DNA of 32,000 bases from an uncultured Roseburia sp. (GCA_945787015.1 CALZGM010000013.1:28568-60567), one strand, 5' to 3'. Numbered from the stretch's first letter, positions 1 to 16,724 are shown. Numbers and translations: made by a program. Notes: a model not told the origin generated them from the letters alone.

Positions 1-895
1 TCATAATCAGGCTTTTGAACAGTGCCGGATTTCTCCCCGACTTCTGAATAGAAGCCTTTGCTTTCTGTCCGATTTCACTCTGCTTCACCTCCAAAATCTG
101 TTTCTCCGGCACACCACTGACGAATGCCCTGTCCACCGTCTGATTCCACATGGTACGAACCCGATTATCCGCTTCTATCTGCTCTGCTTTTGGATTGTTT
201 TTGCCAACCTTTTTCATGGGCAGATACACACCATTCTTATCAAATACTTTCAGCTTCTCCTTATCATCCCTCACATAAATATTGATAAGGTCTGTATAGG
301 AACGTTTTACCTCATCAAGGAAACTGTCGCTCTTAAATCGGCTGTCCTTTATGGTAAAAAGATTACGCTCATATACTTCGCCCTTGGGAATAATTTTACA
401 GCCACTCCGAAGCTGTCCAGCATCATCCATTATCTCTTTTTTGGTTCGTACATGCTTTCCGGTTTCATCATAAAACATGTTCCTTGTGGCAATCTTCAAC
501 ACAGGAGCATCAAGCAGCTTCCGCTCCGAAAAGATAAGATGAATATGATAATTTGTCTTGCGTTTGTTATGGTGCAAAGCAGCGATGCACTCCACGTCAT
601 ATTTTTGCTTGAAGTATTCCGTAAAAAGTTTCAGCAATTTGTCCGGTTCATAATCCACGAATCTTTCCGGCAGTGCAATAATCAGTTCCCTTGCTTCAAT
701 ACACTTGCCTTCTGTTCCGCTTCTCTTAAATTCCTCCTGGTTACACTTGGCAAGTTCCGTCCAAAATTTACGGTCAGTTGTTTCATAAACTGCGTACAAA
801 TTTTCCTGCCTTGCGTGACTAGAGATATAGTTAATTCTTCCTTTTAAATTTGTCAGTTTTGACATCTGTATAAATGAATTTCTTACAATAGGCAT
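1..895 (-). CDS. MOBQ-type conjugative relaxase, N-terminal ~298 aa (3' end runs off the window)
   Basis: Own translation from the ATG at 895: MPIVRNSFIQMSKLTNLKGRINYISSHARQENLY... It has an N-terminal catalytic-Tyr-like motif (RINYISS, compare RSF1010 MobA ADYIQRE) and a 3-His motif (LHHNKRKTNYHIHLIF). The frame is open to position 1. It is missing from the ORF track because it is edge-truncated. Confidence 0.8.
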   Translation of the reverse strand, partial: MPIVRNSFIQMSKLTNLKGRINYISSHARQENLYAVYETTDRKFWTELAKCNQEEFKRSGTEGKCIEARELIIALPERFVDYEPDKLLKLFTEYFKQKYDVECIAALHHNKRKTNYHIHLIFSERKLLDAPVLKIATRNMFYDETGKHVRTKKEIMDDAGQLRSGCKIIPKGEVYERNLFTIKDSRFKSDSFLDEVKRSYTDLINIYVRDDKEKLKVFDKNGVYLPMKKVGKNNPKAEQIEADNRVRTMWNQTVDRAFVSGVPEKQILEVKQSEIGQKAKASIQKSGRNPALFKSLIM

Positions 896-940
896 TGCCC
901 CCTTTCTTTGAAAACTGGTGGCGATTATGCCACTGTGAGT

Positions 941-1174
941 GGACACATAGGTGTCCGTTTACGAACTCATTGCCGTATCCGGCATGGACACAAATGCGAC
1001 AGCATTTGAACGCAGATAAGCATTGTAAATGCTTATACAGCGATGCTCTTTCGCTGTACTGCGAAGCAGCTGCGTTCATGAGCAAGCAGCGTAGCGGATT
1101 GCGAATGTCAGCCCCCTGCAAGGGCGAAATACACAGAGTACAAATCGAAGATTTGTGCGATGGGTGTATTTCGC
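941..1174. repeat. Cluster of perfect hairpins upstream of the relaxase; candidate oriT
   Basis: ggacac/gtgtcc at 941-956. ataagcatt-gta-aatgcttat at 1016-1036. acagcga/tcgctgt at 1037-1057. A nested hairpin with outer arms gcgaaatacac (1124-1134) and gtgtatttcgc (1164-1174), and inner arms acaaatc/gatttgt (1140-1156). Confidence 0.45.
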
Positions 1175-1299
1175 TCTCAAACGCCGAGGGCTTGTGAGAG
1201 AAGTCCGGCTCCTTCCATTTGTTCCCTTACACTGCTTTCTCCTTAACGATATTTACAGGAGCGTGCCACGCTCCCGTCATACACACCGAAGGGAAAAAT

Positions 1300-1533
1300 C
1301 TACCATCGAAAGTCCCGATGCATTCCTACCTTTTCCAGATACTCCTGCCTTGCCTTTTCCCGTTCTTCCTCGGTTGGTGCTGTCTTATATTTTGTATATA
1401 AATCCCGCCTTACCATAGCTTCCAGTTTGTCCTCCAATCCCTTCTTAATCTCTGGCAAAACATCATCTGTTTCCACCAAGTGATACTTCAAAAGTGCGAA
1501 GAACAGTTCCTCGGAAATCTGTATGTTTTTCAA
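1300..1533 (-). CDS. Small helical hypothetical protein (77 aa) of the mobilization operon
   Basis: ORF-track protein MKNIQISEELFFALLKYHLVE... It is co-directional with the ATPase and the relaxase. I recognise no motif. Confidence 0.55.
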   Translation of the reverse strand: MKNIQISEELFFALLKYHLVETDDVLPEIKKGLEDKLEAMVRRDLYTKYKTAPTEEEREKARQEYLEKVGMHRDFRW

Positions 1534-1563
1534 TCTATCAATCCATCCTTTCCATCATCTTCC

Positions 1564-1647
1564 GTGACGGTTGCGTACGATTGCGACGATTATTTCTATA
1601 CCAGCACCGCTATATAAAATACCGTCGCAACCGTCGCTAATCGTCAC
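1564..1647. repeat. Iteron-like imperfect inverted repeat built from ACGRTTGCG units around an AT-rich spacer
   Basis: Units acggttgcg (1567-1575), acgattgcg (1577-1585) and acgattat (1586-1593). Inverted copies cgcaaccgt (1626-1634) and cgctaatcgt (1635-1644). Outer arms gtgacg/cgtcac. Confidence 0.6.
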
Positions 1648-2801
1648 GCTCTCTGTTCTAATGTCAGTTTAATCATTCGTGAACTGTGTCCTCGTTTACT
1701 CTCGTACCGAATACCATAATCCATAAATAAACGCTCCATGCCGATGTTTAATTTTCTTGTAAGGATGTTTGGCTGCATATCCATCTCCGGCAAAAGCTGT
1801 AACAATTCCGAAGCGGTTCCGATCCACTGAGGCTGTTCCTCTGATACCACCTTTGCAATCGCTTCCAGCACCGGATCAGCAGGCTCTTTCCAAAGCTCCG
1901 TTTCTGCTTTTGTCAGCTTCCACACACACTGTTCTCTGTCAAAATCGAGAAGCAGTCGCTGGTCTTGCTGGTCACGTCCTGCCACCTCTAAAACCGCTTT
2001 ATTATCCGTCCTCTTTTCCTTCTGCATGACAAATGCTCCGTCCGCAGCTCCCAGCAATCCATTTGTGCCGGAAATCATATCAAAGCTGTCAGAGGACTCC
2101 ATCTTTCTTGTGTGGTGCACCACCAGCAGACAGATACCATGCTCATCACTAAAGGCTTTCAGCTTGGTTACAATCTCATAGTCACTGGCATAGCTGAATT
2201 TATCTCCACCAAGTTCCCTTACCTTCTGCAAGGTATCAATGATAATCAGCCTTGCGTCTGTATGCTCTTTTACGAACTGGTTAAGCTGTTCTTCCAATCC
2301 TTCATTTAGAGTTTTGGACTGTGTGGCAAAGTAGAAATTTTCACTGCTTTCTATACCAAACATCCTTGATAAACGCTTCTGCAATCTTGCATAATCATCC
2401 TCTAATGCCAGATACAAAACAGTGCCCTTCCGCACCGGATAATCCCACAAATCAAGCCCCATGCTTACATGGTAGCCGAGCTGTGCCATAAAGAAGGATT
2501 TCCCTACCTTTGGTGCGCCCACAAATAGATAAGTACCTGCATAGATCAGTCCGTCCACAATCGGTATCTTGGGTGGATAAGCAGTATCGTAAAGTTCTGT
2601 CATGGATACTGTCTCTAATCCATCAATCCTATCTCTTTTCTCTGCCGTAACTTCCGCACCGGAACCACGATTATTTGTGGCTTGCAGATTGCCCTTATCG
2701 GGCAAATCTGCTATACTTTCCTTGTTAGTTTTACATAGTGACTGCTTCCCATCTGCGCCAACAGATGGAACCGGAGCAGTCGCTTTTTCTTTTACACTCA
2801 T
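1644..2801 (-). CDS. RepA/DnaB-like RecA-fold ATPase (AAA_25-type), probably the replication or mobilization helicase of the element
   Basis: Walker A motif GAPKVGKS and Walker B-like motif ARLIIIDTLQ. The ATG overlaps the mobC stop codon. Confidence 0.75.
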   Translation of the reverse strand: MSVKEKATAPVPSVGADGKQSLCKTNKESIADLPDKGNLQATNNRGSGAEVTAEKRDRIDGLETVSMTELYDTAYPPKIPIVDGLIYAGTYLFVGAPKVGKSFFMAQLGYHVSMGLDLWDYPVRKGTVLYLALEDDYARLQKRLSRMFGIESSENFYFATQSKTLNEGLEEQLNQFVKEHTDARLIIIDTLQKVRELGGDKFSYASDYEIVTKLKAFSDEHGICLLVVHHTRKMESSDSFDMISGTNGLLGAADGAFVMQKEKRTDNKAVLEVAGRDQQDQRLLLDFDREQCVWKLTKAETELWKEPADPVLEAIAKVVSEEQPQWIGTASELLQLLPEMDMQPNILTRKLNIGMERLFMDYGIRYESKRGHSSRMIKLTLEQRA

Positions 2802-3121
2802 TCACTCTCTCCTCTCAATCCATTCATGGTTTCCGCTATCAGTTGGATTGTGTAAAGCAATTCGTCATTTGCTTCACTGCAACTCTCCAGACGCTTCAGT
2901 TCCTCATAAATATCTGCCATCTGATTTCTTAATGCCTTATACACTCTCGGATTACCCTGTACCACCACATCACGGCACTGCAACCGTCTGATAATATAGT
3001 CCTGCTTGGTAAGACCGGATAATGCCACACAATTGTCAATCAGCTTTGCTTCTTCCTCTGATACCCGAAATCCCACAAGTTTGTTTCTCCAGCGTCCTTT
3101 GCTGTCTAAATTTTTCTCCAT
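2798..3121 (-). CDS. mobC: MobC-family relaxosome accessory protein (ribbon-helix-helix)
   Basis: RWRNKLVGFRVSEEEAKLIDNCVALSGLTKQDYIIRRL matches the MobC pattern. The ATG at 3121 overlaps the integrase stop codon (ATGA-type junction). Confidence 0.7.
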   Translation of the reverse strand: MEKNLDSKGRWRNKLVGFRVSEEEAKLIDNCVALSGLTKQDYIIRRLQCRDVVVQGNPRVYKALRNQMADIYEELKRLESCSEANDELLYTIQLIAETMNGLRGESE

Positions 3122-4203
3122 CAATCCATCTCTCCTTTTCCCATTCGCTCAATGTCCAATTTATCTGCCATTTCCGTCTGCTTCGTTGGAAATAAATGTG
3201 CATACCGGTAAGTAATATCAATACTTTCATGTCCTACCCTTTCCGCAATCGCCAGAGCAGAAAATCCCATCTCAATCAAAAGTGAAATCGCACTGTGACG
3301 AAGATCATGGATGCGGATACGCTTGACTCCTGCTGCCTTTGCCCCTCTGTCCATCTCATGGTGCAGATACGACTTGGTAATCTGGAACAGCCTTTCATCC
3401 TCCCCAATCTCATACAGCATACCAATATACTCTTGCATTTCCTCACACAAAAACTTCGGCATTTTAATTGTCCGGTTACTTTTCTTGGTTTTCGGTGTGG
3501 TAATCACATCCCTGCCATTCAACCGCTGATAGGACTTATTGATGGTCAGCTCCTGACGCTCGAAATTAAAGTCCTTTGGTGTAAGGGCAAGCAGCTCCCC
3601 ACACCGGATTCCCGTCCAATAGAGCATTTCAAACGCATAATAGGAAACAGGCTTATCCATCATCACATCCGCAAATTTCAGATATTCCTCTTTCGTCCAG
3701 AACAGCATTTCCTTGTGTTCCTCGCTTCCCATCGATCCGGCTCTCTGCGCCGGATTGGAAGGCAAATGATAATATCTTACTGCATGATTGAAAATGGCAC
3801 TGAGCTGGCTGTGGATGGTTTTAAGGTAAGTTGGGGAATACACTTCCCCATTCTCTCCCTTATAGGCAAGAAGCTCATTCTGCCAGGCAATCACATCCTT
3901 TGGCTCAATCTCCGCAATCTTACGCTCCCCGAAATAAGGAAGTATCTTGGTACGGATAATATGGCTTTTGGACTCCCATGTGTTCTCCTTTACCCGTTTT
4001 TTCTTGTCGGCTTCATAAATCTCAAAGAAGCTGGCAAAAGTCATATCCAGCTTGGACTCACTTTTTAACATCACCTCCCTCTCCCATGCTTGTGCTTCTC
4101 GTTTGGTTGCAAAACCACGTTTCTGTGTCTGTTTCCGCTCTCCCTTATAATTGGTATAGCGGTAAATGACACGCCATTTGTCACCATCTTTATATACAGC
4201 CAT
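3121..4203 (-). CDS. int: Tyrosine site-specific integrase
   Basis: N-terminal arm-binding-type domain (MAVYKDGDKWRVIYRY...REAQAWE). Catalytic pattern TGIRCGELLAL ... HDLRHS ... GHESIDITYRYAHL (R, H-x-x-R, H, Y). Confidence 0.9.
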   Translation of the reverse strand: MAVYKDGDKWRVIYRYTNYKGERKQTQKRGFATKREAQAWEREVMLKSESKLDMTFASFFEIYEADKKKRVKENTWESKSHIIRTKILPYFGERKIAEIEPKDVIAWQNELLAYKGENGEVYSPTYLKTIHSQLSAIFNHAVRYYHLPSNPAQRAGSMGSEEHKEMLFWTKEEYLKFADVMMDKPVSYYAFEMLYWTGIRCGELLALTPKDFNFERQELTINKSYQRLNGRDVITTPKTKKSNRTIKMPKFLCEEMQEYIGMLYEIGEDERLFQITKSYLHHEMDRGAKAAGVKRIRIHDLRHSAISLLIEMGFSALAIAERVGHESIDITYRYAHLFPTKQTEMADKLDIERMGKGEMD

Positions 4204-4218
4204 AACATCATCTCCTCT

Positions 4219-4398
4219 CTATTCGCTGTAACATAACTTCTTGCGAAAGAAGTTGGTATTCACTCTTCCGGTAACTGTCAAATACCCAAGCTTCTGCATT
4301 TCCGCATTCAGCTCTCTGACAACCTTGTATGCATAGGACTTGGAAACATTAAGCTCCTGTGCCACTTCATCCACCGTCATAAAGTTCTTATTCTCCAT
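4219..4398 (-). CDS. xis: Excisionase / MerR-type HTH DNA-binding protein
   Basis: MENKNFMTVDEVAQELNVSKSYAYKVVRELN... The RBS aagggggA lies 6 nt before the ATG at 4398. It sits directly upstream of int. Confidence 0.75.
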   Translation of the reverse strand: MENKNFMTVDEVAQELNVSKSYAYKVVRELNAEMQKLGYLTVTGRVNTNFFRKKLCYSE

Positions 4399-4603
4399 GT
4401 GGATTCCCCCTTTCTTCAAAATTTTGTTTGCCGCTCTCCCTTACACTTTCCTGACAGGTTGCCTTGCGTGGTACTTTGTCGTGTTTCCATCCCTTCGTAC
4501 GCTCACTTTCGGTCATCGCATATTTTTCCGGATGGTATCTGCTCGGACGGTCATTTAGTTTTAACTTAACTTACTTTGTTTAAGTTTCTGTTTTGTATAA
4601 TAC

Positions 4604-4711
4604 TAAACATTTTCCGTTAAGTCAAGTGGTTTTCAGAATAATCTTAAACATTTTTATTTAAGTTCTTCTTGCTATACTCATTAACACATGTTATACTCTA
4701 CTTAAACATTT
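4604..4711. promoter_or_regulatory. Three copies of TAAACATTT in the xis / XRE divergent control region; candidate operators
   Basis: taaacattt at 4604-4612, 4645-4653 and 4703-4711. An inverted partial copy, gtttaag, lies at 4577-4583. Confidence 0.5.
4669..4697 (+). promoter_or_regulatory. Sigma-A-type promoter for the XRE repressor
   Basis: TTGCTA (4669-4674), 17-nt spacer, TATACT (4692-4697). The predicted transcription start falls on the third TAAACATTT copy. Confidence 0.5.
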
Positions 4712-4760
4712 CTGTTTTACTTAACAGATAAATGGCAACAACATGACAGGAGGCATTACT

Positions 4761-5321
4761 ATGGCAATCGGGCAACGAATTCGATTTTTCCGTAACAGAA
4801 AAGGCATGACACAAAAGCAGCTTGGAGAAGTCCTCGGCTTTCTTGGCAAGACTTCTGATGTCCGTATGGCACAATATGAATCAGAATCAAGAGTACCCAA
4901 GCATGATCTCGTAAAAGAAATGGCTGGTATCTTTGATGTCAGCACCCATGCACTTACCGTACCGGATATAGATACCTACATCGGTCTTATGCATACCTTT
5001 TTCGCATTGGAAGATATGTATGGACTGAAAATTGACGAAATGGATGGTGAAGTAGTCTTACGTTTGGATAAGTCCGACTATTCTACCTATTCCTCAATGG
5101 ATAAAATGCTCCGTGCATGGCTCGCCGAAGCTAAAAAGCTGGAGAATGGCGAAAGCACCAAAGAGGAATATGATAACTGGCGTTATAAATATCCGGAACT
5201 GGATACACACCAAGTCTGGGCTAAGGTTCCTTCACAGGAAATCAGCGATATGCTTCTCGCCGGATTAAAAGAAATGGAAAAAGAAGAAAAGAAAGAAACC
5301 AAACGCAAAATGAAAAAATAA
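4761..5321 (+). CDS. XRE-family HTH transcriptional regulator (repressor of the element)
   Basis: MAIGQRIRFFRNRKGMTQKQLGEVLG is an HTH_3 pattern. The RBS aggagg (4748-4753) lies 7 nt before the ATG at 4761. Confidence 0.8.
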   Translation: MAIGQRIRFFRNRKGMTQKQLGEVLGFLGKTSDVRMAQYESESRVPKHDLVKEMAGIFDVSTHALTVPDIDTYIGLMHTFFALEDMYGLKIDEMDGEVVLRLDKSDYSTYSSMDKMLRAWLAEAKKLENGESTKEEYDNWRYKYPELDTHQVWAKVPSQEISDMLLAGLKEMEKEEKKETKRKMKK

Positions 5322-5329
5322 GCATGAAA

Positions 5330-5380
5330 AAACCTTACCAATTTTCAGTTGTCATATCTGAAAATCAGTAAGGTTTTCTT
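5330..5380 (+). terminator. Intrinsic terminator after the XRE gene
   Basis: aaaccttaccaattttcag / ctgaaaatcagtaaggtttt form a roughly 19-bp stem, followed by a T-rich run. Confidence 0.75.
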
Positions 5381-5419
5381 ATGCTCATAAAGTAATCTTA
5401 TTCATTGAATAAGGAAATT

Positions 5420-5498: not shown

Positions 5499-7055
5499 TT
5501 ACTCAAACTCAATTGTTCCGGGTGGCTTACTGGTCAAGTCGTAGAATACTCTGTTGACCCCGCGCACCTCATTTATAATTCGGCTCATCACAGTTTGAAG
5601 TACCTCGAACGGAATCTCTGCAGCCTCTGCTGTCATGAAGTCAATGGTATTGACTGCTCTTAAGGCAACCGCGTAGTCGTAGGTTCTTTCGTCGCCCATG
5701 ACGCCTACGGAACGCATATTGGTAAGTGCTGCGAAATACTGGCCGATGTTGCGGTCAAGGCCGGCTTTTGCGATTTCCTCACGGTAAATCGCATCGGCAT
5801 CCTGCACGATGCGCACTTTTTCAGCGGTTACTTCTCCGATGATACGGATGCCAAGCCCCGGTCCCGGGAATGGCTGACGGAATACAAGATGTTCCGGTAT
5901 TCCAAGCTCTAAGCCGGCTTTACGAACCTCGTCCTTGAAGAGGTCACGGAGTGGTTCAATGATTTCCTTGAAATCAACGCAATCCGGAAGGCCTCCAACG
6001 TTGTGGTGGGATTTGATGACTGCGGATTCACCGCCGAGACCACTCTCTACCACGTCAGGATAGATGGTTCCCTGTACGAGGAAATCAACAGCGCCGATTT
6101 TCTTTGCTTCTTCTTCAAATACACGGATAAATTCTTCACCGATGATTTTACGTTTGCGTTCAGGCTCTTCTACACCTGCGAGCTTACTGTAAAAACGCTC
6201 CTGTGCATTTACACGGATAAAGTTCAATTTATATGGGCCATCCGGTCCGAATACTGCCTCAACCTCATCGCCCTCATTTTTTCTAAGAAGGCCATGGTCT
6301 ACAAAGACGCAAGTGAGCTGCTCACCAATTGCTTTTGCAAGCATAACTGCGGCAACAGAGGAATCCACGCCGCCGGACAATGCGCAAAGCACTTTGCCGT
6401 CTCCGACTTTTTCACGAATGGTTTTGATGGAGTTCTCAACAAAGGAATCCATTCTCCAGGTTCCTGCACAGCCACAGACTCCACGAACGAAGTTGCGAAG
6501 CATCTTGGTTCCTTCCTGTGTGTGAAGTACTTCCGGATGGAACTGGATTGCATACAGATTTTTTTCACGATTTTCTGCTGCAGCAACCGGGCAGTCTGCG
6601 GTATGTGCCACGATGGAAAATCCCGGTGCAATTTTAGAAATATAATCAAAATGACTCATCCAGCAAATTGTTTTTTCGCTGACATCTGTAAAAAGCGGGG
6701 ATGCCGTATTTACGAAGACTTCTGTCTTACCATACTCGCGTACCGGTGCTTTTTCTACTTTGCCGCCAAGTACATGCATCATCAGCTGTGCGCCATAGCA
6801 AAGGCCCAGTACCGGAATGCCCAGTTCGAATAATTCTTTGGTGTAAGTCGGTGCGCCTTCCTCATAGCAGCTGTTTGGTCCGCCTGTTAAAATGATACCC
6901 ATTGGCTTCATTGCTTTAATCTGCTCGATATCGGTACGATATGAATAGATTTCACAATAAACGTTGCATTCTCTGACACGTCTTGCAACCAGCTGGTTGT
7001 ACTGACCGCCAAAGTCAATGACAATCACTTTTTCTTTGGAAATGTCGTTTCCCAT
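5499..7055 (-). CDS. guaA: GMP synthase (glutamine-hydrolysing)
   Basis: GATase start [16 protein letters not shown]-PPase motif SGGVDSS, canonical C-terminus KPPGTIEFE. Confidence 0.97.
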
Positions 7056-8052: not shown

Positions 8053-9126
8053 CTAATCTGCTATATAGTTCGCAAAACCATCTGTATGATAAATGGTTCC
8101 GTCATTCATCACCCATAATGCTTCTACGCCGTCTATCCCATTTACAAAAGCCAGTCCCTCTTCATAAGGCATGTTAAAAACAGCGGTCGACAACGCATCT
8201 GCCATACCGGAATCTTTTGCCAAAATGGATACCGAAGCAAAATAGTCAGCCGGCATCAAAGTATCTCCATCAATAATGTGACAGTACCGCTCACCATCAA
8301 CCACATAATATCTCTGATAATTTCCGCTGGTAACCACACAGGCATCGGAAATATCTACTTTTTCCACATAAGCCTCATCGCTTTTCATATCCGGGTTCTG
8401 AATGCCAATGCGCCAGTCGCTGCCATCCAGTTTTTTCCCAACAGCACAAACATTTCCACCTACGCTTAGCAATACCTGTTTCATACCGATTTCTTTGGCA
8501 TATTCTGCAAGTTTCTGCACTGCGTAGCCTTTTCCGATACTTCCCACATCAATGGACATATGCGCATCCGGCAAATAGACCGTGGAGGCTTCCTCATCAA
8601 TGATAATTTGATTGATATCCATATAAGCTGACGCAGCCTGCAAATCCTCCATCGGTGGAAGTTTTGCGTTTTCCGGGTCATCGATACCTGCATCGCGGTA
8701 ATCGTGCCAGATGCTTAACACGCTTCCCATGGCAATGTTAATCTGGCCATTTGTTTTTTCATACATTTCCTTACTAAAAAGCAGCAAGTCAATAATATCC
8801 CGGTTTACCTCCACTGGTGCAATTCCGGCGTTGTCATTAATCGTTTTGATATTATTGATGCCTTCGTAATCATTGTAAATGTCATATAAATCGTTGTAGT
8901 AGGCAAGCTTGTCTTTTAAAAGGCTTACCTGTTCGGTGAATGCTTCCTCATCGGTACTATAACCGATGACGTCTGTTTTCGTATCGAATACATCCAGGAA
9001 GCTTGCTGTATAACGCGACAACTCCGGCTCTTTCTTACTATTGTAAATAACTGCTACCACAAGGAGTAGTAAAAAAATCACACCCACTACTCCGATTTGT
9101 TTTTTTCTATTCATCATGTTCCTCAT
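8053..9126 (-). CDS. apbE: FAD:protein FMN transferase (ApbE family), membrane-anchored
   Basis: The DVGSIGKGYAVQK motif and overall ApbE-like sequence, with an N-terminal hydrophobic anchor. Confidence 0.85.
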   Translation of the reverse strand: MRNMMNRKKQIGVVGVIFLLLLVVAVIYNSKKEPELSRYTASFLDVFDTKTDVIGYSTDEEAFTEQVSLLKDKLAYYNDLYDIYNDYEGINNIKTINDNAGIAPVEVNRDIIDLLLFSKEMYEKTNGQINIAMGSVLSIWHDYRDAGIDDPENAKLPPMEDLQAASAYMDINQIIIDEEASTVYLPDAHMSIDVGSIGKGYAVQKLAEYAKEIGMKQVLLSVGGNVCAVGKKLDGSDWRIGIQNPDMKSDEAYVEKVDISDACVVTSGNYQRYYVVDGERYCHIIDGDTLMPADYFASVSILAKDSGMADALSTAVFNMPYEEGLAFVNGIDGVEALWVMNDGTIYHTDGFANYIAD

Positions 9127-9306: not shown

Positions 9307-10821
9307 ATGTCACAAACAGTAAAATTGACACCGGATACACTAAAGGCTTTACATGAAGTAAATCCAATGCTCGTATCCTACAATGTTGAGTTTGCAGAGG
9401 TTACTGGGGGTACCTTCTGGAAAGCTTACACACCGGGGCAGATTGCCGGCACTGAGCCTTTTATTGTACAGCCAACTGCAGATGGTATTGCAGCAATGTA
9501 CAAAGATTTGATGCAGGTATATCCTCCTATTGATCTGTATAACGAAAAGCTCCGCAAATTAGCAAAGGATTTAGGTCCTGCATGGGTTCGTGTTTCCGGA
9601 ACCTGGGCTACCAAAACCTACTATGATTTTGATGGCACTACAAACGGCGTTGTACCGGAAGGTTATCTTAATGTATTAACAAAGGAACAGTGGATTGGCG
9701 TTCTTGATTTTGTAAAAGCGATTGGTGCCAAGTTAATGGTATCCGTTTCGAACTGTCCGGGTCTTCACACCGCAGAGGAACCATGGAATCCTTCCGAAGC
9801 AGAAAAACTTTTCGGTCTGAGCAAAGAATACGGTGTTCCGATTAATGGCGCAGAATTTACAAATGAGCCTAATATGATGGAAGAAACCGGTTTTCCGAAG
9901 GGCTACACTGCAGAACACTACCGCAGAGACCACGATTTATTCTTTTCCTGGTTAGAGGAAAACTATCCGGAATGTATCAAAATTGGGCCCAGCACAACAG
10001 GCGGCGATAATATCTCTTTTGGGAAAGGCGGCGGTGTTGAGCAGCTTGTTGGAGAAACCGTGGGATGTGACGACCTTGTTGGCGGCACAAAGACAAAATT
10101 AGATGTGTTCAGTTATCATTATTACAATGGTGTTTCTGACCGTCTCGCATCTGTGATGCCAAACGCCCACTGGCAGCCGGAAGAAGCAACTTCCGAAGCA
10201 TACTTAGATACCGCATTAAACTTCTGCCGTACTTACCGCCCGTTCCGTGACAAATATGTTCCGGGAGGCGAAATGTGGGTAACCGAGTCCGGCGATGCAG
10301 GCGGCGGTGGTGACACCTGGGCTTCCACCTATCTGGATGTTATCCGTACGTTAAACGAACTTGGTGGTTTTGCATCTTTAACAAACGGTGTCATTTTCCA
10401 CAACACCCTTGCTTCTTCAGATTATGGCTATCTTGCACGTCAGGTATTTGACCCAAGACCGAATTATTTTGCAGTCCTGTTGTGGAACCGCTTAATGGGT
10501 ACTACTGCTTACGATTCAGGTGAACCAATCCGTGAGGGAGCACATGTTTATGTTCATTCCCGCAAAGATGGCAAAGAAGGTAAGGTTTACTTAGTCATCA
10601 ACAATTCAAGAACGGAAACTACAACCGTTGAACTGCCGAAGGACGCAGAGCGCTATACCTTAGCAGGTTTAGACGGCAACGTTCGCGCTACAGTTATGAC
10701 CTTAAACGGCAATCCGTTAACCTTAGGTGAAGGCTATGCTCTTCCGGAATTAAAACCGGTTGCACAGGCTGCCGGAACTGTAGAGTTAGCGCCTTGCACT
10801 TGTACGTTCTTTGTATTATAA
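9307..10821 (+). CDS. Glycoside hydrolase, GH79 / heparanase-like (beta-glucuronidase type); no signal peptide seen
   Basis: Acid/base motif AEFTNEPN and nucleophile motif WVTESGDAGGGG resemble heparanase NEPN and GETSSAYGGG. RBS aaaggagaag lies upstream. Confidence 0.7.
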   Translation: MSQTVKLTPDTLKALHEVNPMLVSYNVEFAEVTGGTFWKAYTPGQIAGTEPFIVQPTADGIAAMYKDLMQVYPPIDLYNEKLRKLAKDLGPAWVRVSGTWATKTYYDFDGTTNGVVPEGYLNVLTKEQWIGVLDFVKAIGAKLMVSVSNCPGLHTAEEPWNPSEAEKLFGLSKEYGVPINGAEFTNEPNMMEETGFPKGYTAEHYRRDHDLFFSWLEENYPECIKIGPSTTGGDNISFGKGGGVEQLVGETVGCDDLVGGTKTKLDVFSYHYYNGVSDRLASVMPNAHWQPEEATSEAYLDTALNFCRTYRPFRDKYVPGGEMWVTESGDAGGGGDTWASTYLDVIRTLNELGGFASLTNGVIFHNTLASSDYGYLARQVFDPRPNYFAVLLWNRLMGTTAYDSGEPIREGAHVYVHSRKDGKEGKVYLVINNSRTETTTVELPKDAERYTLAGLDGNVRATVMTLNGNPLTLGEGYALPELKPVAQAAGTVELAPCTCTFFVL

Positions 10822-11149: not shown

Positions 11150-11410
11150 TCACCTGTGCCCTTCCATATGTAAGTATTTTTCTCTTGTTGCAAGTCCACC
11201 ACGCAAATGCCGTTCTGCCTTATTTACATCCAGCACTTTCCTTACTTCTGCCGCAAGCGAAGCATTTACCTGCACTAATCGTTCTGTGCAATCCTTATGT
11301 ACGGTCGACTTACTGATTCCAAAATGTTTTGCGGCCTGTCTTACTGTTGTGTTGTTGTCAATAATATAACGCGCAATCTCCATTGCACGCTCTTCAATAT
11401 ATCCTTTCAA
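11150..11410 (-). CDS. spoIIID: Stage III sporulation transcription factor SpoIIID
   Basis: (M)KGYIEERAMEIARYIIDNNTTVRQAAKHFGISKSTVHKDCTERL aligns with B. subtilis SpoIIID MHDYIKERTIKIGKYIVETKKTVR...VSKSTVHKDLTERL. TTG start at 11410, with RBS AGGGGA 5-6 nt upstream. Confidence 0.9.
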   Translation of the reverse strand: MKGYIEERAMEIARYIIDNNTTVRQAAKHFGISKSTVHKDCTERLVQVNASLAAEVRKVLDVNKAERHLRGGLATREKYLHMEGHR

Positions 11411-11455
11411 AAAAATCCCCTGCAATACTTGTTTTTACATTGTATGCAGGGGATT
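11337..11455. repeat. 119-bp direct repeat, copy 1 (functional spoIIID 5' end, RBS, promoter -10 and hairpin)
   Basis: Matches 15370-15488 at 117 of 119 positions. The mismatches are at 11350/15383 and 11409/15442. Confidence 0.95.
11413..11452 (-). terminator. Hairpin plus T-run ending the nucleotidyltransferase gene; it overlaps the spoIIID promoter and RBS
   Basis: Minus strand: cccctgcatac...gtattgcagggg followed by attttttt. Confidence 0.6.
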
Positions 11456-11467
11456 TTGTATTTATTT
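11439..11467 (-). promoter_or_regulatory. Sigma-E-type promoter candidate for spoIIID
   Basis: The minus strand reads CATACAAT (11446-11439), matching the B. subtilis sigma-E -10 element CATACA-T. An ATA-rich -35-like element, aaataaa, lies 14 nt upstream. Confidence 0.45.
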
Positions 11468-12196
11468 CTATTTTCCATTATCCGTCACATGTTTTTTCGC
11501 CTTAGCAGCTAATAAAATCTCGGCAAGATTGTCACCATTAAGCACACCCGGATAATCTTCCTGGAATTCAACTAATACATCCTTATTTTCCTGTTCAAGT
11601 TCTCTGCACTGCTTGTAAAAAGCATGCAAATTTTCTTTCTTATAAACAGCCTCGATAAAAACTCTGGCATCTTCTGGTATTCGGCTATAAGAATCGTATA
11701 AATCGATTATAGCCTTTTGAATTTTTTCAAATGTCAATGGCTCATTCCGTTCTTCCTGCTCAATCAACACACCTACAATATCAGATAAATCATTTTTATA
11801 TTGGCGTCCTGCCATGAGTTTCATTGCTACAAGATATTCAGCTGATACTGTTCTAATCTGTAAAACATTTGCAAAAGTCTTATAATACTTTGAATACTCT
11901 ACCAATCTTGGCGTATAGGAATTGGTATTAATAAAGTCTGTATTTAACCATCCAACCGGAAGACCAAGTCTATCTCCTACTGTGTTGATTGCATCCTTCA
12001 TAGACCCGGAAGACTGAATAATTGCATCTATGTCATAGGTCATTTCCCGAAAACCATAATTAATAAGAATTGCTGCCCCACCAATCAGAATAATCTCCGC
12101 CGGCATTCTGGTACCATTCTTTTTACGAAACTCTTTTGCCAGTTCTTTTAGATAACCATCCAGATTTTCCTTTGTAAATGGTTTATCAACAGACAT
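11468..12196 (-). CDS. Pol-beta-fold nucleotidyltransferase, AbiEii/MenT-like putative toxin
   Basis: NTase signature LIGGAAILINYGFREMTYDIDAI (GG, 13 residues, then DxD; compare AbiEii GGTAL...R.S.DlD). It overlaps the upstream HTH gene by 11 nt. Confidence 0.6.
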   Translation of the reverse strand: MSVDKPFTKENLDGYLKELAKEFRKKNGTRMPAEIILIGGAAILINYGFREMTYDIDAIIQSSGSMKDAINTVGDRLGLPVGWLNTDFINTNSYTPRLVEYSKYYKTFANVLQIRTVSAEYLVAMKLMAGRQYKNDLSDIVGVLIEQEERNEPLTFEKIQKAIIDLYDSYSRIPEDARVFIEAVYKKENLHAFYKQCRELEQENKDVLVEFQEDYPGVLNGDNLAEILLAAKAKKHVTDNGK

Positions 12197-12767
12197 TTCG
12201 CACCTCGCTTTCTACGATATTAAATTGTATAAATTCAGGTATTGCATTCGCAAGTGCTTTTTCTTTTATACTTTCATCTCCGGTTGCAGCATATGACACA
12301 ACTACACTCGCAGGAAAATATGGTTTTTCAAGCTTCCGAGAACGAATATCATTATAATTTGTGCAGATGGGCAAACCGTTTATTCTGGATAAATAGTCAA
12401 TCATTGCCAGCAGATACAATGCTTCTCTATACCATCTACGCTCATAAAGCCTTCGTATTTCATCCGTTTCAAGTGTTTCAATAATAAAATCAATATCGCC
12501 CATATCCTTCACCTGATGACAAGTATTACTCTTAAATGTCTCAAAAGAGAATCTGTAATCCGTCCTGTCTGCGTTATTGTTCTCCAATATTGAATCAACA
12601 GTTACTCCAAGAACCTTAGCAATCCTATATAAAGTTCCAGCTGCACACTTATCGAGGTCTGCTTTGCCGCTACAAATATCTGTGATAGTTGTCATTGCGA
12701 CTCCGCTTTCTTTACTTAAGCGATATCTCGACATATTTTCTTTTTCAAGTAAATCATTTACAATCAT
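12186..12767 (-). CDS. XRE-type HTH protein with an uncharacterised C-terminal domain; putative antitoxin or regulator
   Basis: HTH segment MSRYRLSKESGVAMTTITDICSGKADLDKCAAGTLYRIAKVLGVTVDSIL. RBS aaggaggg lies 7 nt before the ATG at 12767. Confidence 0.7.
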   Translation of the reverse strand: MIVNDLLEKENMSRYRLSKESGVAMTTITDICSGKADLDKCAAGTLYRIAKVLGVTVDSILENNNADRTDYRFSFETFKSNTCHQVKDMGDIDFIIETLETDEIRRLYERRWYREALYLLAMIDYLSRINGLPICTNYNDIRSRKLEKPYFPASVVVSYAATGDESIKEKALANAIPEFIQFNIVESEVRNVC

Positions 12768-12788
12768 CAGCTTTCCCTCCTTTTTCAT

Positions 12789-12817
12789 AGTATATCGGTC
12801 AACCGAACTAATGTCAA
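12789..12817 (-). promoter_or_regulatory. Consensus sigma-A promoter with a palindromic operator for the HTH-NTase pair
   Basis: Minus strand: TTGACA (12817-12812), 17-nt spacer, TATACT (12794-12789). The spacer contains the palindrome tcggttgaccga. Confidence 0.7.
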
Positions 12818-13018
12818 TAATATATTATGTTCAATTTGAGAAAATCTATACCTCCGGTTTTACTATGTACTCGCTCTCCTCTGCACATTTTGATGCAGCT
12901 TCTTCTATAGCGCGTTCCACTTTACCTGCATTAGCTTCAATCAAAAGCTTACACAAAATTACTAAGCAAAAACCGGTGAAACTGCAACTTTGTTCCTTTT
13001 TGTAATATAATCAGAATT

Positions 13019-15091
13019 CTACCAAGCCAACTGACATTCATGTTTCTTAAAGAAATCCACTCTCGGTTCCAGATACTCCAATTTATGTTTCTCTACATCT
13101 CCAACATAAAATGCAATAGGCTCAAAAATATGATTCCAATCCCACAATTCTTCTCCCACATTTAGATATTCTCTAAACATTTCACATCCTTCCGGTGCAA
13201 TTGGATGAACTAAAATCGCCATAATCTTACAAGCATAAAAGCAATCCAAAATAAGCTGCTTTCTATATTCCATATCACCTGTTGCATCGGCAATTTTTAC
13301 ATTATTTACCCAGTGCTTGTTTACCCGCCGTATAAAATCATCCAAAACATATGAAATTCGATGGAACTCATGGTTATACATATGACGCTCATAGTCAAGC
13401 ACCGCTTTTTCAGCCAAAGTCTTTATTTCCTCACTCACTTCTCCCTCAGGAATTCTACCATCACAATTGTTCTGAATTGCATAAAAACAGGTGCGAATCA
13501 GACGATTAAACACATTGGTAATTAAATTGCCATCTTTCAAAACCATATCAACCCCAACACGTTCTTCCTCTTTCATAAACACCTGTGGTTTAAAACCTAC
13601 ACTTTTTGAGGACAGCCCTAAACTCATAAAATGCATTCGCAGCTGATCCTTAGTGTAATAATCAAGCAACTCATCCGCCGTAGGTGGCTTTATTTCTGAA
13701 CTACTACTGGCTTTTGTATCCATATACAATAAATGTCGGTTAGCAATAATATGAGATAAATGTACCTTCTCCATATTCGGCACTTCCCCTTTAGGAACCT
13801 GTAATCCTGTAAATAATCCGGTCTGAGCAATCGCATAGAAATAAATATTATCTTCCCCAATAAACTGATAAACTGTAGATTCATCATCATACCACCACTT
13901 GGACAAATCATCTTCCTTTTCCTTCTCCCTTAAATATGCTAAAGTAAAGGAAATTGGTGCCCATAACGACTCCGGCCACACCCAGAATGTCAAGTCTTTT
14001 AAATCTTCACATTCCGGAAAAGGTACTCCCCATTCTACATTGCCGGACAGTCGAAACGGAACCAATGTCTTTCCAGAAGTATAATGAATATTTTCCGCAT
14101 CCAAAACACTTTTCGCCTTGTCTCTGTCATCCAGGTTTTCAAATTCGAAGACAACAGAAGGTTTCTTCTCCTCATCAATCAGTTTATGAGGTGGTAATTT
14201 TTCGATTAATTTTTCCAAATCAACTATATATTTTCTAGGCACATAAATATAAGGCTTCTTCAAAAATTCTTCTACGGTTTCTAACTGATACTTACGGGTG
14301 TTTGTATTTTTGCGCAAAAAATCATTATATTCCTTTACCATATCGATACAATGTTCTAAGTCAAAATACCAATTCTTAACATCTTTAAGAACAGGCTTTT
14401 TATTCGACAGACAACTGATAGGACCTATAAGTTCAGAAGGCAAAAACTGGTGTCCCAGTGAACATTCATCTGCGTATGCTTTGTCTGAGGTACATCCCGG
14501 TATCGGGCATTTTCCTATTACCTGTCTTCCGTTTAAAAACATCTTCTTTTCCTCATCATAAAACTGTGGCACAGACAATTTCTGAATATACCCGTTCTCA
14601 TATAAAGTTCGAAATACTCTAGCTGATACACGTTTATGAATTGTTCCTGCCTCTTCTAAAGCCGACGCGCCAAAAAAGTCCAAACTAATACCATAGTTTT
14701 CCAAGGTCTTCTTCTGTCTCTCGTGATTACCACGTACATAGTCCTTAAGCGTTCCTTCATATCCCACTTCCTGCAGTTTGCGATAACTTTCCATAATAGG
14801 CGAGCCGTAACAGTCAGTTCCGGAAAGAAAAATAACATTCTCTTTTCCAATTCTGTCTCTTAAAAATCTTGCAAAAATATCAGCATGTATAAACATACCG
14901 CCTACGTGTCCAAAATGCAGGTTCTTATTTCCATAAGGCATACCTGCCGTAATAATTGCCCTTTTAGGAAATGTCGGGCGTTCATTTGATGTTAATCGTT
15001 TACATATCATATACATTTGTTCCTTTCTGTTATTTACTATGATTTTTCCCTGCTTCCCCTTCTGCTGGGGAAGCTCTGACTGTTCCGGCAT
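13019..15091 (-). CDS. metG: Divergent methionine--tRNA ligase paralog (class I aaRS)
   Basis: HIGH motif PYGNKNLHFGH, Zn-knuckle-like CPIPGCTSDKAYADEC, and MetRS-like LRMHFMSLGLSS. The KMSKS position reads TKASSSS. RBS aggagg lies 6 nt before the ATG at 15091. Confidence 0.75.
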   Translation of the reverse strand: MPEQSELPQQKGKQGKIIVNNRKEQMYMICKRLTSNERPTFPKRAIITAGMPYGNKNLHFGHVGGMFIHADIFARFLRDRIGKENVIFLSGTDCYGSPIMESYRKLQEVGYEGTLKDYVRGNHERQKKTLENYGISLDFFGASALEEAGTIHKRVSARVFRTLYENGYIQKLSVPQFYDEEKKMFLNGRQVIGKCPIPGCTSDKAYADECSLGHQFLPSELIGPISCLSNKKPVLKDVKNWYFDLEHCIDMVKEYNDFLRKNTNTRKYQLETVEEFLKKPYIYVPRKYIVDLEKLIEKLPPHKLIDEEKKPSVVFEFENLDDRDKAKSVLDAENIHYTSGKTLVPFRLSGNVEWGVPFPECEDLKDLTFWVWPESLWAPISFTLAYLREKEKEDDLSKWWYDDESTVYQFIGEDNIYFYAIAQTGLFTGLQVPKGEVPNMEKVHLSHIIANRHLLYMDTKASSSSEIKPPTADELLDYYTKDQLRMHFMSLGLSSKSVGFKPQVFMKEEERVGVDMVLKDGNLITNVFNRLIRTCFYAIQNNCDGRIPEGEVSEEIKTLAEKAVLDYERHMYNHEFHRISYVLDDFIRRVNKHWVNNVKIADATGDMEYRKQLILDCFYACKIMAILVHPIAPEGCEMFREYLNVGEELWDWNHIFEPIAFYVGDVEKHKLEYLEPRVDFFKKHECQLAW

Positions 15092-15136
15092 GGTACACCT
15101 CCTTTCCGATTTTTCAAATCGATGAAGTTTGCTCAC

Positions 15137-15177
15137 AAAAAAACGGTCAAAAACTCGCATTGAGCTTTCGACCGTTT
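15137..15177 (-). terminator. Intrinsic terminator / attenuator inside the MetRS leader
   Basis: Minus strand: aaacggtc (15177-15170), 21-nt loop, gaccgttt (15148-15141), then ttttt. It lies about 45 nt upstream of the MetRS start codon. Confidence 0.65.
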
Positions 15178-15205
15178 GGTTCAGATTAACTAGGATAAAC
15201 GCTTG

Positions 15206-15298
15206 TTATGAACACAACACAAAAAGCCCATTGTCAGTTTTAACAATAAGCTGCTGTTGCTGGTTCATTTTGTTCATGCTAATTGATAATTTAATCAT
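15206..15298 (-). CDS. Possible 30-codon leader ORF (MIKLSISMNKMNQQQQLIVKTDNGLFVLCS)
   Basis: Own translation. RBS aaggaagga lies 8 nt upstream. It sits between the promoter and the attenuator terminator. There is no further support. Confidence 0.25.
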   Translation of the reverse strand: MIKLSISMNKMNQQQQLIVKTDNGLFVLCS

Positions 15299-15325
15299 GG
15301 GCTTATCCTTCCTTTGTTTTGTGTA

Positions 15326-15354
15326 ATTCTATCAGTAGTGATATGCATTGTCAA
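15326..15354 (-). promoter_or_regulatory. Consensus sigma-A promoter of the MetRS paralog
   Basis: Minus strand: TTGACA (15354-15349), 17-nt spacer, TAGAAT (15331-15326). Confidence 0.65.
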
Positions 15355-15369
15355 TATGAAATATCTGTT

Positions 15370-15443
15370 TGTCTTACTGTTGAGTTGTTGTCAATAATAT
15401 AACGCGCAATCTCCATTGCACGCTCTTCAATATATCCTTTCCA
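15370..15443 (-). pseudogene. Orphan 5' fragment of spoIIID (about 25 codons, start codon TTG mutated to TGG)
   Basis: The minus strand reads tgg aaa gga tat att gaa gag cgt gca atg gag att gcg cgt tat att att gac aac aac. Homology to spoIIID ends at 15370. Confidence 0.8.
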
Positions 15444-15488
15444 AAAAATCCCCTGCAATACTTGTTTTTACATTGTATGCAGGGGATT
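15370..15488. repeat. 119-bp direct repeat, copy 2
   Basis: See copy 1. It contains the same hairpin/T-run, which here terminates the histidine phosphatase gene, and the same CATACAAT element. Confidence 0.95.
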
Positions 15489-15529
15489 GTTAATTATTCT
15501 ATATTTTATGTAGGTACATTTTCCATCCA

Positions 15530-16108
15530 TTAAACAAATTTTATTCCTCTATTAAATGCGTATTCGCAATCTTCTTGACCTCTTTCGTATCTGCATTCAA
15601 CAATTTCTGCCGGTGCAATATTCTCAATATATTTCAAAGTCCGAAAAGCCATACCATGTCCTACAATAATCACTTTTTCATAATCAGCATATTTATCAGC
15701 CACTCGCTTTATACGCTCTCGCAATGATGAAAGTGACTCCCATCTCATATCTTGCCCTTCCGGATAAACACCTTTATAATCTTGAAACTCCTTTCCAATC
15801 ATTGCCACTTCTTCCGAAGATGTTATAGAATTCGTTTTATCTACAATCCATTCATGCAGTTCTGGTTCCACCACAATTTCCTTATTAATTTTTCTTGATA
15901 TGATTGCAGCTGTCTGCAATGCCCTGGTATATGGAGAGCAAATAATCAAATCTGCATCTAATAGTCTGCTGTCTTCTGCCATTTCCTCCATCTGTTTCAA
16001 ACCAAGTTCTGACAATGGCGCAAAGCTTCTACCAAAACCATAAAATCCTATTTTTGAGACTGCTTCATAATCCGGTTCTCCATGTCGAATCAAATAAAAT
16101 AGTGCCAT
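15530..16108 (-). CDS. Histidine phosphatase family protein (phosphoglycerate mutase-like)
   Basis: N-terminal LIRHGE motif (RHG catalytic signature) and a later GHG motif. Confidence 0.85.
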   Translation of the reverse strand: MALFYLIRHGEPDYEAVSKIGFYGFGRSFAPLSELGLKQMEEMAEDSRLLDADLIICSPYTRALQTAAIISRKINKEIVVEPELHEWIVDKTNSITSSEEVAMIGKEFQDYKGVYPEGQDMRWESLSSLRERIKRVADKYADYEKVIIVGHGMAFRTLKYIENIAPAEIVECRYERGQEDCEYAFNRGIKFV

Positions 16109-16130
16109 TTTATCTTCCCTTTTATACCTT

Positions 16131-16724
16131 TCAATCTATCCTTATCACATGCGAACTCGTCTGTGCTTTTATAGACACACCATTCCATCTATAATCGTAC
16201 AATTCAACATCTTCCGGTGTAACAGATAAGTAGTCTCCATTCATACCTTGAATTCGGATTTCTTCATCATGAATCTCCACATCCACGTACAATGCCTGTT
16301 TATATAAAAGCATTCCGTGCAAATAACCATATTTCTTTTTCAGTTCTTCTGAACTCACAATTTGAGCACCACACCATACATAAGCAGCTGAATTAACAGT
16401 ATAGTACGGAATGTCATTAACAACTGTAAACGCATCTCCATGATCATGTCCATTCATGCATAACAATATATCCTTCCCCTGAAACAGCCTTCTTATCTCT
16501 TCTCTATTATAAATACCTCTATCCCTATGTTCATTCACAAGACTGTGGTGTGAAAAAATAATATACTTTTTTCTGTCACTCAATTCCCTTTTCAGCCATT
16601 CTATTTCGTCTTCCGGAATGATTGGATAGATGGAATTAGCCTCCCTATAAGTTCTTCTATAGTAAGCGCTTTCCTGACCATCCTTACTGAAATAACAAGA
16701 GTTCAAAACAATAAACTTAATCAT
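16131..16724 (-). CDS. Metallophosphoesterase C-terminal half (motifs I-III absent)
   Basis: Only the late motifs are present (FSHHSL and NGHDHGD). No DxH, GDxxD or GNHE motif is found. Only 76 bp separate its start from the aroK stop codon. Confidence 0.6.
   Translation of the reverse strand: MIKFIVLNSCYFSKDGQESAYYRRTYREANSIYPIIPEDEIEWLKRELSDRKKYIIFSHHSLVNEHRDRGIYNREEIRRLFQGKDILLCMNGHDHGDAFTVVNDIPYYTVNSAAYVWCGAQIVSSEELKKKYGYLHGMLLYKQALYVDVEIHDEEIRIQGMNGDYLSVTPEDVELYDYRWNGVSIKAQTSSHVIRID

Follow-up and report, generated by a model that had tools for sequence, protein, structure and literature searches.

The cis-mobilizable elements (CIMEs) of Streptococcus thermophilus are flanked by the attachment (att) sites of an integrative and conjugative element, and these repeats, for which the family of the integrase can be identified, are found again at one tRNA gene or gene end across many strains. 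The original work on homology-facilitated illegitimate recombination was reportedly carried out in Acinetobacter and Streptococcus. In this process, one end is joined by homology and the other illegitimately (PMC3240628). The effector/immunity arrays of the Vibrio cholerae type VI secretion system (T6SS) undergo sequential displacement via a conserved gene end (PMC5361080), and sporulation genes are known to harbour intervening elements, namely skin in sigK, SPβ in spsM and gin in gerE (PMC5025042, PMC4191935, PMC5595907). Here we analyse a stretch of 32,000 nucleotides, hereafter called the window, from an uncultured Roseburia sp. (GCA_945787015.1 CALZGM010000013.1:28568-60567), in which an original prediction, made from the sequence alone, had noticed a recombinase-less cassette bracketed by 119-bp direct repeats of the promoter and 5' end of the sporulation gene spoIIID. 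The cassette is probably a scar and not a self-moving element, left when a crossover in the spoIIID 5' region and an illegitimate join fused two upstream haplotypes; as such it adds a new case to a known process and does not represent a novel type of mobile element.

The repeats duplicate the promoter and 5' end of spoIIID

Direct comparison bore out the two direct repeats. Copy 1 (11337-11455, minus strand) and copy 2 (15370-15488, minus strand) are identical at 117 of 119 positions and differ at 11350/15383 and 11409/15442. The window contains no third copy of any 20-mer taken from them. The 119-bp sequence is not a dispersed repeat. Past the 119 bp, identity is lost immediately at the coding-side end and only scattered AT-rich matches are found on the promoter side, the two copies sharing only weak similarity across about 20 nt upstream of the hairpin. 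Such a drop in identity just outside the repeats is as expected of two joined alleles.

In agreement with the original prediction, each copy contains a hairpin followed by a T-run (ΔG -22.9 and -21.1 kcal/mol, z -6.1 and -4.9 for the two copies, minus strand), with CATACAAT within the loop and GGGGA within the 3' arm, as well as a ribosome-binding site (RBS) and about 25 codons of spoIIID, that is codons 1-24 and two bases of codon 25 (24.7 codons). Copy 1 provides the working promoter/hairpin and 5' end of an intact spoIIID gene (11150-11410, minus strand, TTG start). The coding sequence of this gene is uninterrupted, and its complete 86-aa product matches Pfam SpoIIID (138.7 bits) and TIGR02844 (125 bits), both above the cut-off, and has exact matches in L003 and L004, so that the gene is indeed restored rather than interrupted, as had been proposed. 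Copy 2 carries the dead 5' stub of 24 codons and 2 nt, in which the TTG start codon is replaced by TGG (15443-15441), a change that fits a non-functional stub. At both mismatch positions, copy 1 has the allele of the sister species (L003).

The 37-nt hairpin of spoIIID (within 11395-11460) was found to be identical, among 120 metagenome loci, across species whose spoIIID coding sequences diverge by 10-20%. In more distant species, the stem is altered by compensatory substitutions and the CATACAATGTAAAAA loop is retained. This covariation of the stem together with the conservation of the loop fits a dual terminator/promoter role, and the sequence points to a hairpin that may in addition mask the RBS. 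The transcript of a σE-type promoter would start inside the 3' arm, downstream of the CATACAAT loop, so that it would not include the 5' arm and its RBS would be accessible. Neither the hairpin nor the leader described below corresponded to an Rfam family (gathering threshold over the whole window, E-value threshold over 11300-15600), and a scan of the DNA for tRNA genes detected none.

The cassette is a mosaic of modules

Three open reading frames (ORFs), all on the minus strand, lie between the repeats. Their family matches are restricted to tRNA-synt_1g, HTH_26 and DUF6036, and searches of Pfam, NCBIfam, PADLOC and PHROGs assigned none of the three to the recombinases, transposases or integrases; the earlier statement that all genes run in one direction and that no such enzyme is encoded therefore holds. 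The promoter announced about 15 bp from one repeat was recovered as TTGACA-17-TAGAAT at 15354-15326, with its -35 box starting 15 nt from the repeat end, and the last stop codon, which ends at 11468 and belongs to the DUF6036 gene, does lie 12 nt from copy 1. The description of the block as tightly packed stands only in part, as about 280 nt are taken up by a regulatory leader and a 230-nt spacer contains the relic of a gene. The block is a mosaic of modules, not one designed cassette.

The first module, from 15370 to about 13026, comprises a promoter, a leader and the gene of a divergent class I tRNA ligase of 690 aa that resembles methionyl-tRNA synthetase (MetRS) (13019-15091, minus strand; Pfam tRNA-synt_1g, 2e-67). 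The promoter (15326-15354, minus strand; TTGACA-17-TGnTAGAAT) is of a near-consensus σ70 type and is found in about 40 species in unrelated contexts. At about 55 MetRS loci, homology to the module begins only about 15 nt upstream of the -35 box, a position that is exactly the end of copy 2, and ends within the last 2-6 codons of the gene; at about 40 loci, this start of nucleotide homology is preceded by unrelated sequence. Proteins 78-95% identical to the MetRS-like protein form more than 100 clusters and were found in 59 species-representative genomes, mostly of Lachnospiraceae and Acetatifactor.

Downstream of this module, the segment 12852-12960 (minus strand) is a relic of the 3' end of a 139-aa gene, with 82.7% nucleotide identity to L018 14209-14318, where the intact gene sits downstream of a MetRS module. 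A second near-consensus promoter, TTGACA-17-TATACT (12789-12817, minus strand), serves a pair of overlapping genes that encode an XRE-type helix-turn-helix (HTH) protein of 200 aa (12186-12788, minus strand; Pfam HTH_26/HTH_3; 93% identical to the L049 protein) and a DUF6036 nucleotidyltransferase of 242 aa (11468-12196, minus strand; Pfam DUF6036). The 92.9% nucleotide identity of the pair to L049 is restricted to 12847-11492, and the homology of the DUF6036 gene to its relatives ends 24 nt before the stop codon, which indicates that the last seven codons and the stop derive from the spoIIID upstream region. The gene order and the 11-nt overlap are kept in unrelated contexts in L049 and L213-L216, and the overlapping pair is also present between the flagellin gene and glnA in another species. 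More than 5,000 DUF6036 homologues were found, those at 82-93% identity being extremely numerous. The pair forms a widespread bicistronic module, possibly of a toxin-antitoxin-like nature; PADLOC returned only weak HTH hits, and DUF6036 had neither a PADLOC hit nor a homologue in PDB.

The region upstream of spoIIID is a variable slot

On the far side of copy 2, the left flank of the slot (15530-16724, minus strand) consists of a histidine phosphatase gene (15530-16108) and a 197-aa ORF (16131-16724). Both have a low GC content like that of the cassette and are missing in the sister species; the segment of low GC (0.36-0.37 vs 0.43) spans 11.3-16.8 kb, i.e. extends beyond the cassette. In the sister species, the flanks of which are 87-91% identical to the window at the nucleotide level, the gene order is aroK, a 438-aa exporter/HAD gene and spoIIID, and homology with the window is broken just past aroK and returns about 18 nt upstream of the hairpin. 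A sliding comparison of identity between the window and the sister species gave no clear signal of an import tract around spoIIID. Homologues of the histidine phosphatase at 86-87% identity are located in unrelated islands. At the 120 loci from human-gut metagenomes that carry the exact 37-nt hairpin, at least eight types of upstream flank were distinguished. The spoIIID upstream region is thus a variable slot.

In other species, the modules of the cassette adjoin spoIIID without any duplication. In L013, an intact spoIIID is preceded at a distance of 117 bp by the MetRS module, and L049 carries, in this order, the genes for MetRS, a hybrid histidine kinase, HTH and DUF6036, a small ORF and spoIIID; neither locus has a stub upstream of the cargo. 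In L212, L014 and L044, the MetRS module is found 0.6-3 kb upstream of spoIIID (580 nt in L212). It should be noted that the donor-type arrangements of L049, L013 and L212 belong to other species, with 75-83% spoIIID identity. Relatives lacking the cassette, which the original prediction called for, exist (L003, L202-L208); the empty site that it foresaw, with the histidine phosphatase gene joined to spoIIID through a single repeat, was found neither by exact-protein look-ups nor among the 120 metagenome loci.

A crossover and an illegitimate join probably assembled the locus

Two haplotypes would have contributed to the present arrangement. Haplotype A would have contained aroK, the 197-aa ORF, the histidine phosphatase gene and spoIIID, and would have been cut in codon 25 of the latter, whereas haplotype B would have contained the MetRS module and the HTH/DUF6036 module running into spoIIID, and would have been joined from the MetRS promoter on. 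One event would be a homologous crossover in the conserved promoter/5' region of spoIIID or further downstream, and the other an illegitimate join of spoIIID codon 25 to the first bases of the MetRS promoter region. The data fit both Campbell-type integration of a circularised fragment and homology-facilitated illegitimate recombination of linear DNA. The product would be a dead 5' stub (copy 2), the imported cargo and an intact, natively regulated spoIIID (copy 1), and the block could be lost only by homologous (RecA-type) pop-out between the 119-bp repeats. Both ends of the cassette agree with this origin. The repeats correspond to the duplicated promoter/hairpin and codons 1-25 of spoIIID, which could provide the homology anchor, and a non-homologous junction is formed where codon 25 meets the conserved MetRS promoter region at its first base. 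Of the two mechanisms that had been put forward for the duplication, the homology-dependent one (Campbell-type or homologous recombination) fits the evidence, whereas attL/attR is not supported.

The locus shares with Campbell-type integration and homology-facilitated illegitimate recombination a single homology anchor, the lack of a dedicated recombinase, a novel non-homologous junction, the duplication of a target segment as direct repeats and the possibility of homologous pop-out. It differs in being a natural case deduced from sequence, in which the parental molecules were not observed, and in having as anchor the promoter and 5' end of a developmental regulator that is kept intact. As in the T6SS arrays of V. 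cholerae, stranded earlier modules and partial duplicates of the anchor are found in a variable array beside a conserved gene; there, effector/immunity pairs are anchored by an upstream structural gene, through its 3' end, whereas here a tRNA-ligase paralogue and an HTH/nucleotidyltransferase pair form the cargo and the 5' end of spoIIID is the anchor. Long direct repeats duplicating the 5' end of a gene need not signal a mobile element.

The hairpin and T-run could act as an insulator, the transcript of the histidine phosphatase gene being ended at copy 2 and those of the cargo at copy 1, so that spoIIID would be shielded from the strong vegetative promoters of the cargo. The cargo would be expressed from its own promoters, with the MetRS-like gene gated by an attenuator. 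A hairpin that serves as both terminator and promoter would explain how cargo with strong promoters may pile up beside a developmental regulator and leave it undisturbed.

Several observations weigh against such a fusion of haplotypes. The parental haplotype with the histidine phosphatase gene directly before spoIIID was not found, all readable contigs with the exact histidine phosphatase carrying the cassette, and the sole recipient haplotype without the insert that we found is of the sister-species type (aroK, 438-aa gene, spoIIID). Likewise, no donor with the right junction of the window (DUF6036, 12 nt, hairpin) was found, the right junction of L049 being a 270-nt spacer with a small ORF. 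The 98% identity of the copies could equally mean a recent duplication or gene conversion. Finally, the MetRS module and the 139-aa gene also occur within an element inserted into spoIIID (L018), which favours the different history considered in the next section.

Elements that interrupt spoIIID in relatives

In L141 (1432-12570), spoIIID is split after codon 38 (...SKSTVH|) by an insert of 10,853 bp. Among its products are a Mob_Pre relaxase, an HTH protein, Gabija-like proteins (OLD-ATPase and UvrD-like), a restriction-modification system of EcoO109I type accompanied by Vsr, and a large serine recombinase of 511 aa, the gene of which ends at the right junction. When the flanks are joined, the resulting SpoIIID does not differ from that of the intact allele found in this species (L085), and the two ends of the element make up an imperfect inverted repeat, as is typical of the attP of serine integrases. 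A left junction of the same type, with homologous arms and different cargo, was present at 27 of the 111 informative gut metagenome loci. The same junction was recognised in L014, L018, L044, L136, L185 and L212, and further loci are split (L082, L097, L099, L103, L108, L113, L119, L122, L127-L129, L143, L156, L159, L161, L167, L170, L176, L177, L195 and L197-L199). Cargo among these elements varies from Gabija-like genes and restriction-modification to sugar utilisation and ABC/two-component resistance, and the split or intact state of spoIIID is polymorphic within two abundant human-gut species. In abundant Lachnospiraceae of the human gut, the gene is an attachment site, polymorphic in its occupation, of mobilizable elements that have a serine recombinase and carry defence genes, a situation that could explain strain differences in sporulation. 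No description of spoIIID as an attachment site was found in the searchable literature; a recent Anaerostipes study noted only strain differences in this gene.

These elements resemble skin, SPβ and gin in that their target is a mother-cell sporulation gene, that a serine recombinase is encoded at one end and that precise reconstitution of the gene is predicted. The cassette of the window differs from all of them, as it leaves the gene uninterrupted and lacks a recombinase as well as a short att core and the arms that a recombinase would use, and its junction lies at codon 25 instead of after codon 38. In Bacillus subtilis, the SpoIIID orthologue helps control the skin recombinase gene.

Could the cassette be the stranded left part of such an element? 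The insertion of an element with a MetRS module after codon 38 would have been followed by a small deletion, which removed the sequence between codon 25 and the MetRS promoter, including the left arm, and so destroyed attL, and an intact hairpin-spoIIID would then have been gained by one-sided homologous recombination that replaced the recombinase-proximal part and rescued sporulation. The frequency of spoIIID elements among relatives (L141; 27 of 111 informative loci) speaks for this history, and L018 has a MetRS module 1.6 kb inside such an insert, followed by the full 139-aa gene whose relic is present in the window. In L012, L013 and L014, moreover, the MetRS promoter is preceded by sequence resembling the distal left end of the element, from which it follows that the deletion would have had to remove only about 110 nt. 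By contrast, the stub of the window ends in codon 25 and not after codon 38. The junctions are 119-bp duplications without recombinase half-site arms or a few-bp core, the arm motif of the serine recombinase was not found in the cassette at up to 4-5 mismatches (the hits elsewhere in the window, outside the junctions, being at chance level), and neither a serine recombinase nor a remnant of attR is present, the L141 recombinase having no match in the window by tblastn. What the window does contain is an unoccupied attB-like site within spoIIID (11280-11314, minus strand), identified by comparison with attL/attR of L141 and attB of L085, with its crossover after codon 38 at 11297/11296. In L013 and L049, the modules are located upstream of spoIIID without a stub, and the history requires two special events. 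We therefore regard a remnant origin, although the strongest competitor of the haplotype fusion, as rather unlikely. It is to the same limited degree that the cassette may represent immobilised cargo of an undescribed family of spoIIID-attaching elements, the duplication recording the rescue of a sporulation master regulator that had been permanently interrupted; if true, this would reveal a route by which intervening elements become domesticated as fixed accessory islands.

Other arrangements were noticed at the split loci. The sequence following truncated spoIIID in L014, L018 and L044 was first considered as a mere 3' relic of a DUF2442 gene, an assignment that was revised, since this sequence corresponds to the left arm of the inserted elements, the distal part of which does resemble the DUF2442 3' end. 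L014 contains three to four copies of a unit made of an arm-like motif and a terminator hairpin (1790-1815, 4234-4285, 6446-6555, 8516-8572), spaced by about 2 kb and located on both sides of truncated spoIIID, which suggests a serial accretion of modules. In L138 (2216-2700), codon 26 of spoIIID is fused in frame to an SH3-repeat ORF, at most 4 nt from the breakpoint of the window; this locus was not used as a second window-like junction, as it may have arisen by deletion or from a chimeric contig.

Mobilisation in trans and assembly integrity

The original prediction had proposed a cis-mobilizable cassette dependent on a recombinase in trans or on homologous recombination. In an att-based form of this reading, the 119-bp repeats would be attL and attR for a recombinase encoded elsewhere and the 4.0-kb unit would be excised as a circle and re-inserted at spoIIID. 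Precise direct repeats around a compact, co-oriented block, the restoration of the target gene, a tyrosine integrase 7 kb away and the proven use of spoIIID by site-specific elements of relatives would all suit such a mechanism, and a recombinase-less block between direct repeats beside a conserved gene end does recall the CIMEs. However, neither an integrase of the kind associated with CIMEs, within the window, nor their recurrence, nor an att signature was found here. In a survey of 59 species loci, 120 metagenome loci, plasmids and viral contigs, no strain other than that of the window had a unit with the same two ends, and the modules occur separately, in dozens of other contexts, and lie beside spoIIID without duplication in L013, L049 and L212. 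In addition, the recombinase site known from spoIIID does not coincide with the repeats, since it follows codon 38 and consists of a core of a few bp with arms, and the limits of the repeats are functional and homology boundaries, namely the start of the spoIIID promoter/hairpin and that of the conserved MetRS promoter, and not recombinase sites. Movement in trans is accordingly very improbable.

Plasmids searched by megablast with the whole cassette, and viral contigs scanned with a 26-mer of the conserved leader, yielded no match. A megablast search of a phage collection returned one hit, MT837137, which matches the spoIIID repeat only. This entry (MT837137.1, L080), labelled 'Bacteriophage sp.', is a bacterial chromosomal fragment with a HAD hydrolase, a diguanylate cyclase, an intact spoIIID and a Schlafen-like gene.

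The nearby tyrosine integrase (3121-4203), the only integrase in the window, was considered as the missing recombinase and rejected, as it is part of an element linked to guaA and has no 11-mer in common with the repeat. This element, of the integrative mobilizable type, occupies 1-5400 downstream of guaA and runs off the start of the window. It also encodes a NikA-like protein (2798-3124), an AAA_25 protein (1644-2801) and an HTH regulator (4743-5321). In the sister species (L201, L202), related elements with different cargo are found at the same guaA-linked place.

An assembly artefact, in which contigs of two strains would have been chimerically joined via the conserved spoIIID 5' region, can practically be discarded. 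In its favour are the metagenomic origin of the data, the identity of the hairpin 37-mer among many species and the break of two assemblies inside the cassette (12670-12724). Against it, both types of junction are spanned by separate contigs of another assembly and by a second sample (histidine phosphatase-copy 2-MetRS in L001/L077 and DUF6036-copy 1-spoIIID in L002/L079, L078 coming from the second sample), three contigs of 50-200 kb carry proteins of both flanks and of the cassette interior, and the two differences between the copies make them resolvable. The two breaking assemblies, ERZ8974935 and Logan SRR3178347, are independent short-read assemblies. Their interruption does not fall at the 119-bp repeats but towards the 5' end of the HTH gene, where they overlap by 55 nt, which suggests that the community contains this segment in a second copy or as a strain variant.

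A putative leader-peptide attenuator precedes the MetRS-like gene

Firmicute synthetase genes are usually controlled by T-boxes, and B. subtilis thrZ and the E. coli pheST leader are examples of an auxiliary synthetase paralogue and of leader-peptide attenuation. The leader of the MetRS-like gene (about 230-280 nt) is, judging from its sequence, a three-stem leader-peptide transcription attenuator. It contains an ORF of 30 aa (15206-15298, minus strand) with a strong RBS of its own (MIKLSISMNKMNQQQQLIVKTDNGLFVLCS), which is conserved at about 40 loci, in as many species, and is called as a gene in L211. Between this ORF and the gene lies the terminator (15141-15177, minus strand), a 16-bp stem followed by a U-run, which is conserved with compensatory changes. 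An alternative antiterminator is provided by a 9-bp helix in which the NGLF codons (15222-15230) pair with the 5' arm of the terminator. This helix is 98% paired in 33 sequences, as compared to 22-71% for slid controls, and it covaries, with CG and UA in a 13:13 ratio at one pair, none of 500 shuffles reaching the observed score. A further helix, upstream and inside the leader ORF, can sequester the segment used by the antiterminator, giving the three stems. The presumed stalling zone, MNKMNQQQQ, comprises two Met codons and four consecutive Gln codons, and a ribosome stalled there would favour read-through into the MetRS-like gene; candidate signals are Met-tRNA, Gln-tRNA and an arrest induced by a drug.

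The MetRS-like protein did not reach the MetG equivalog cut-off (best NCBIfam score 243.5 bits, cut-off 587). Its nearest solved structure, as the best PDB match, is the Pyrococcus abyssi MetRS (1rqg), and of the class I motifs HFGH is present, whereas the KMSKS position reads KASSS, aligned to KFSTS of 1rqg. As with thrZ and pheST, a second, divergent synthetase-like gene would here be governed by a sensor of translation or charging status in its 5' leader; the enzyme falls below the MetG equivalog thresholds and is a putative synthetase only. The leader also departs from the usual T-box of Firmicutes, having a 30-aa ORF and three alternative stems and no Rfam match. This widespread MetRS-like paralogue under an attenuator absent from Rfam is a candidate for an inducible back-up or inhibitor-resistant synthetase of gut bacteria.

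On the other side of spoIIID, the segment 10825-11147, between a gene encoding a 504-aa protein and the spoIIID 3' end, contains about 250 nt that are absent from the sister species, and within it an inverted repeat (10931-10951/10991-11011) is 86% complementary. The 504-aa protein (9307-10821) is encoded on the strand opposite to spoIIID and had no Pfam hit; it adjoins spoIIID in this and the sister species and belongs to a cluster of 50 members at 90% identity.

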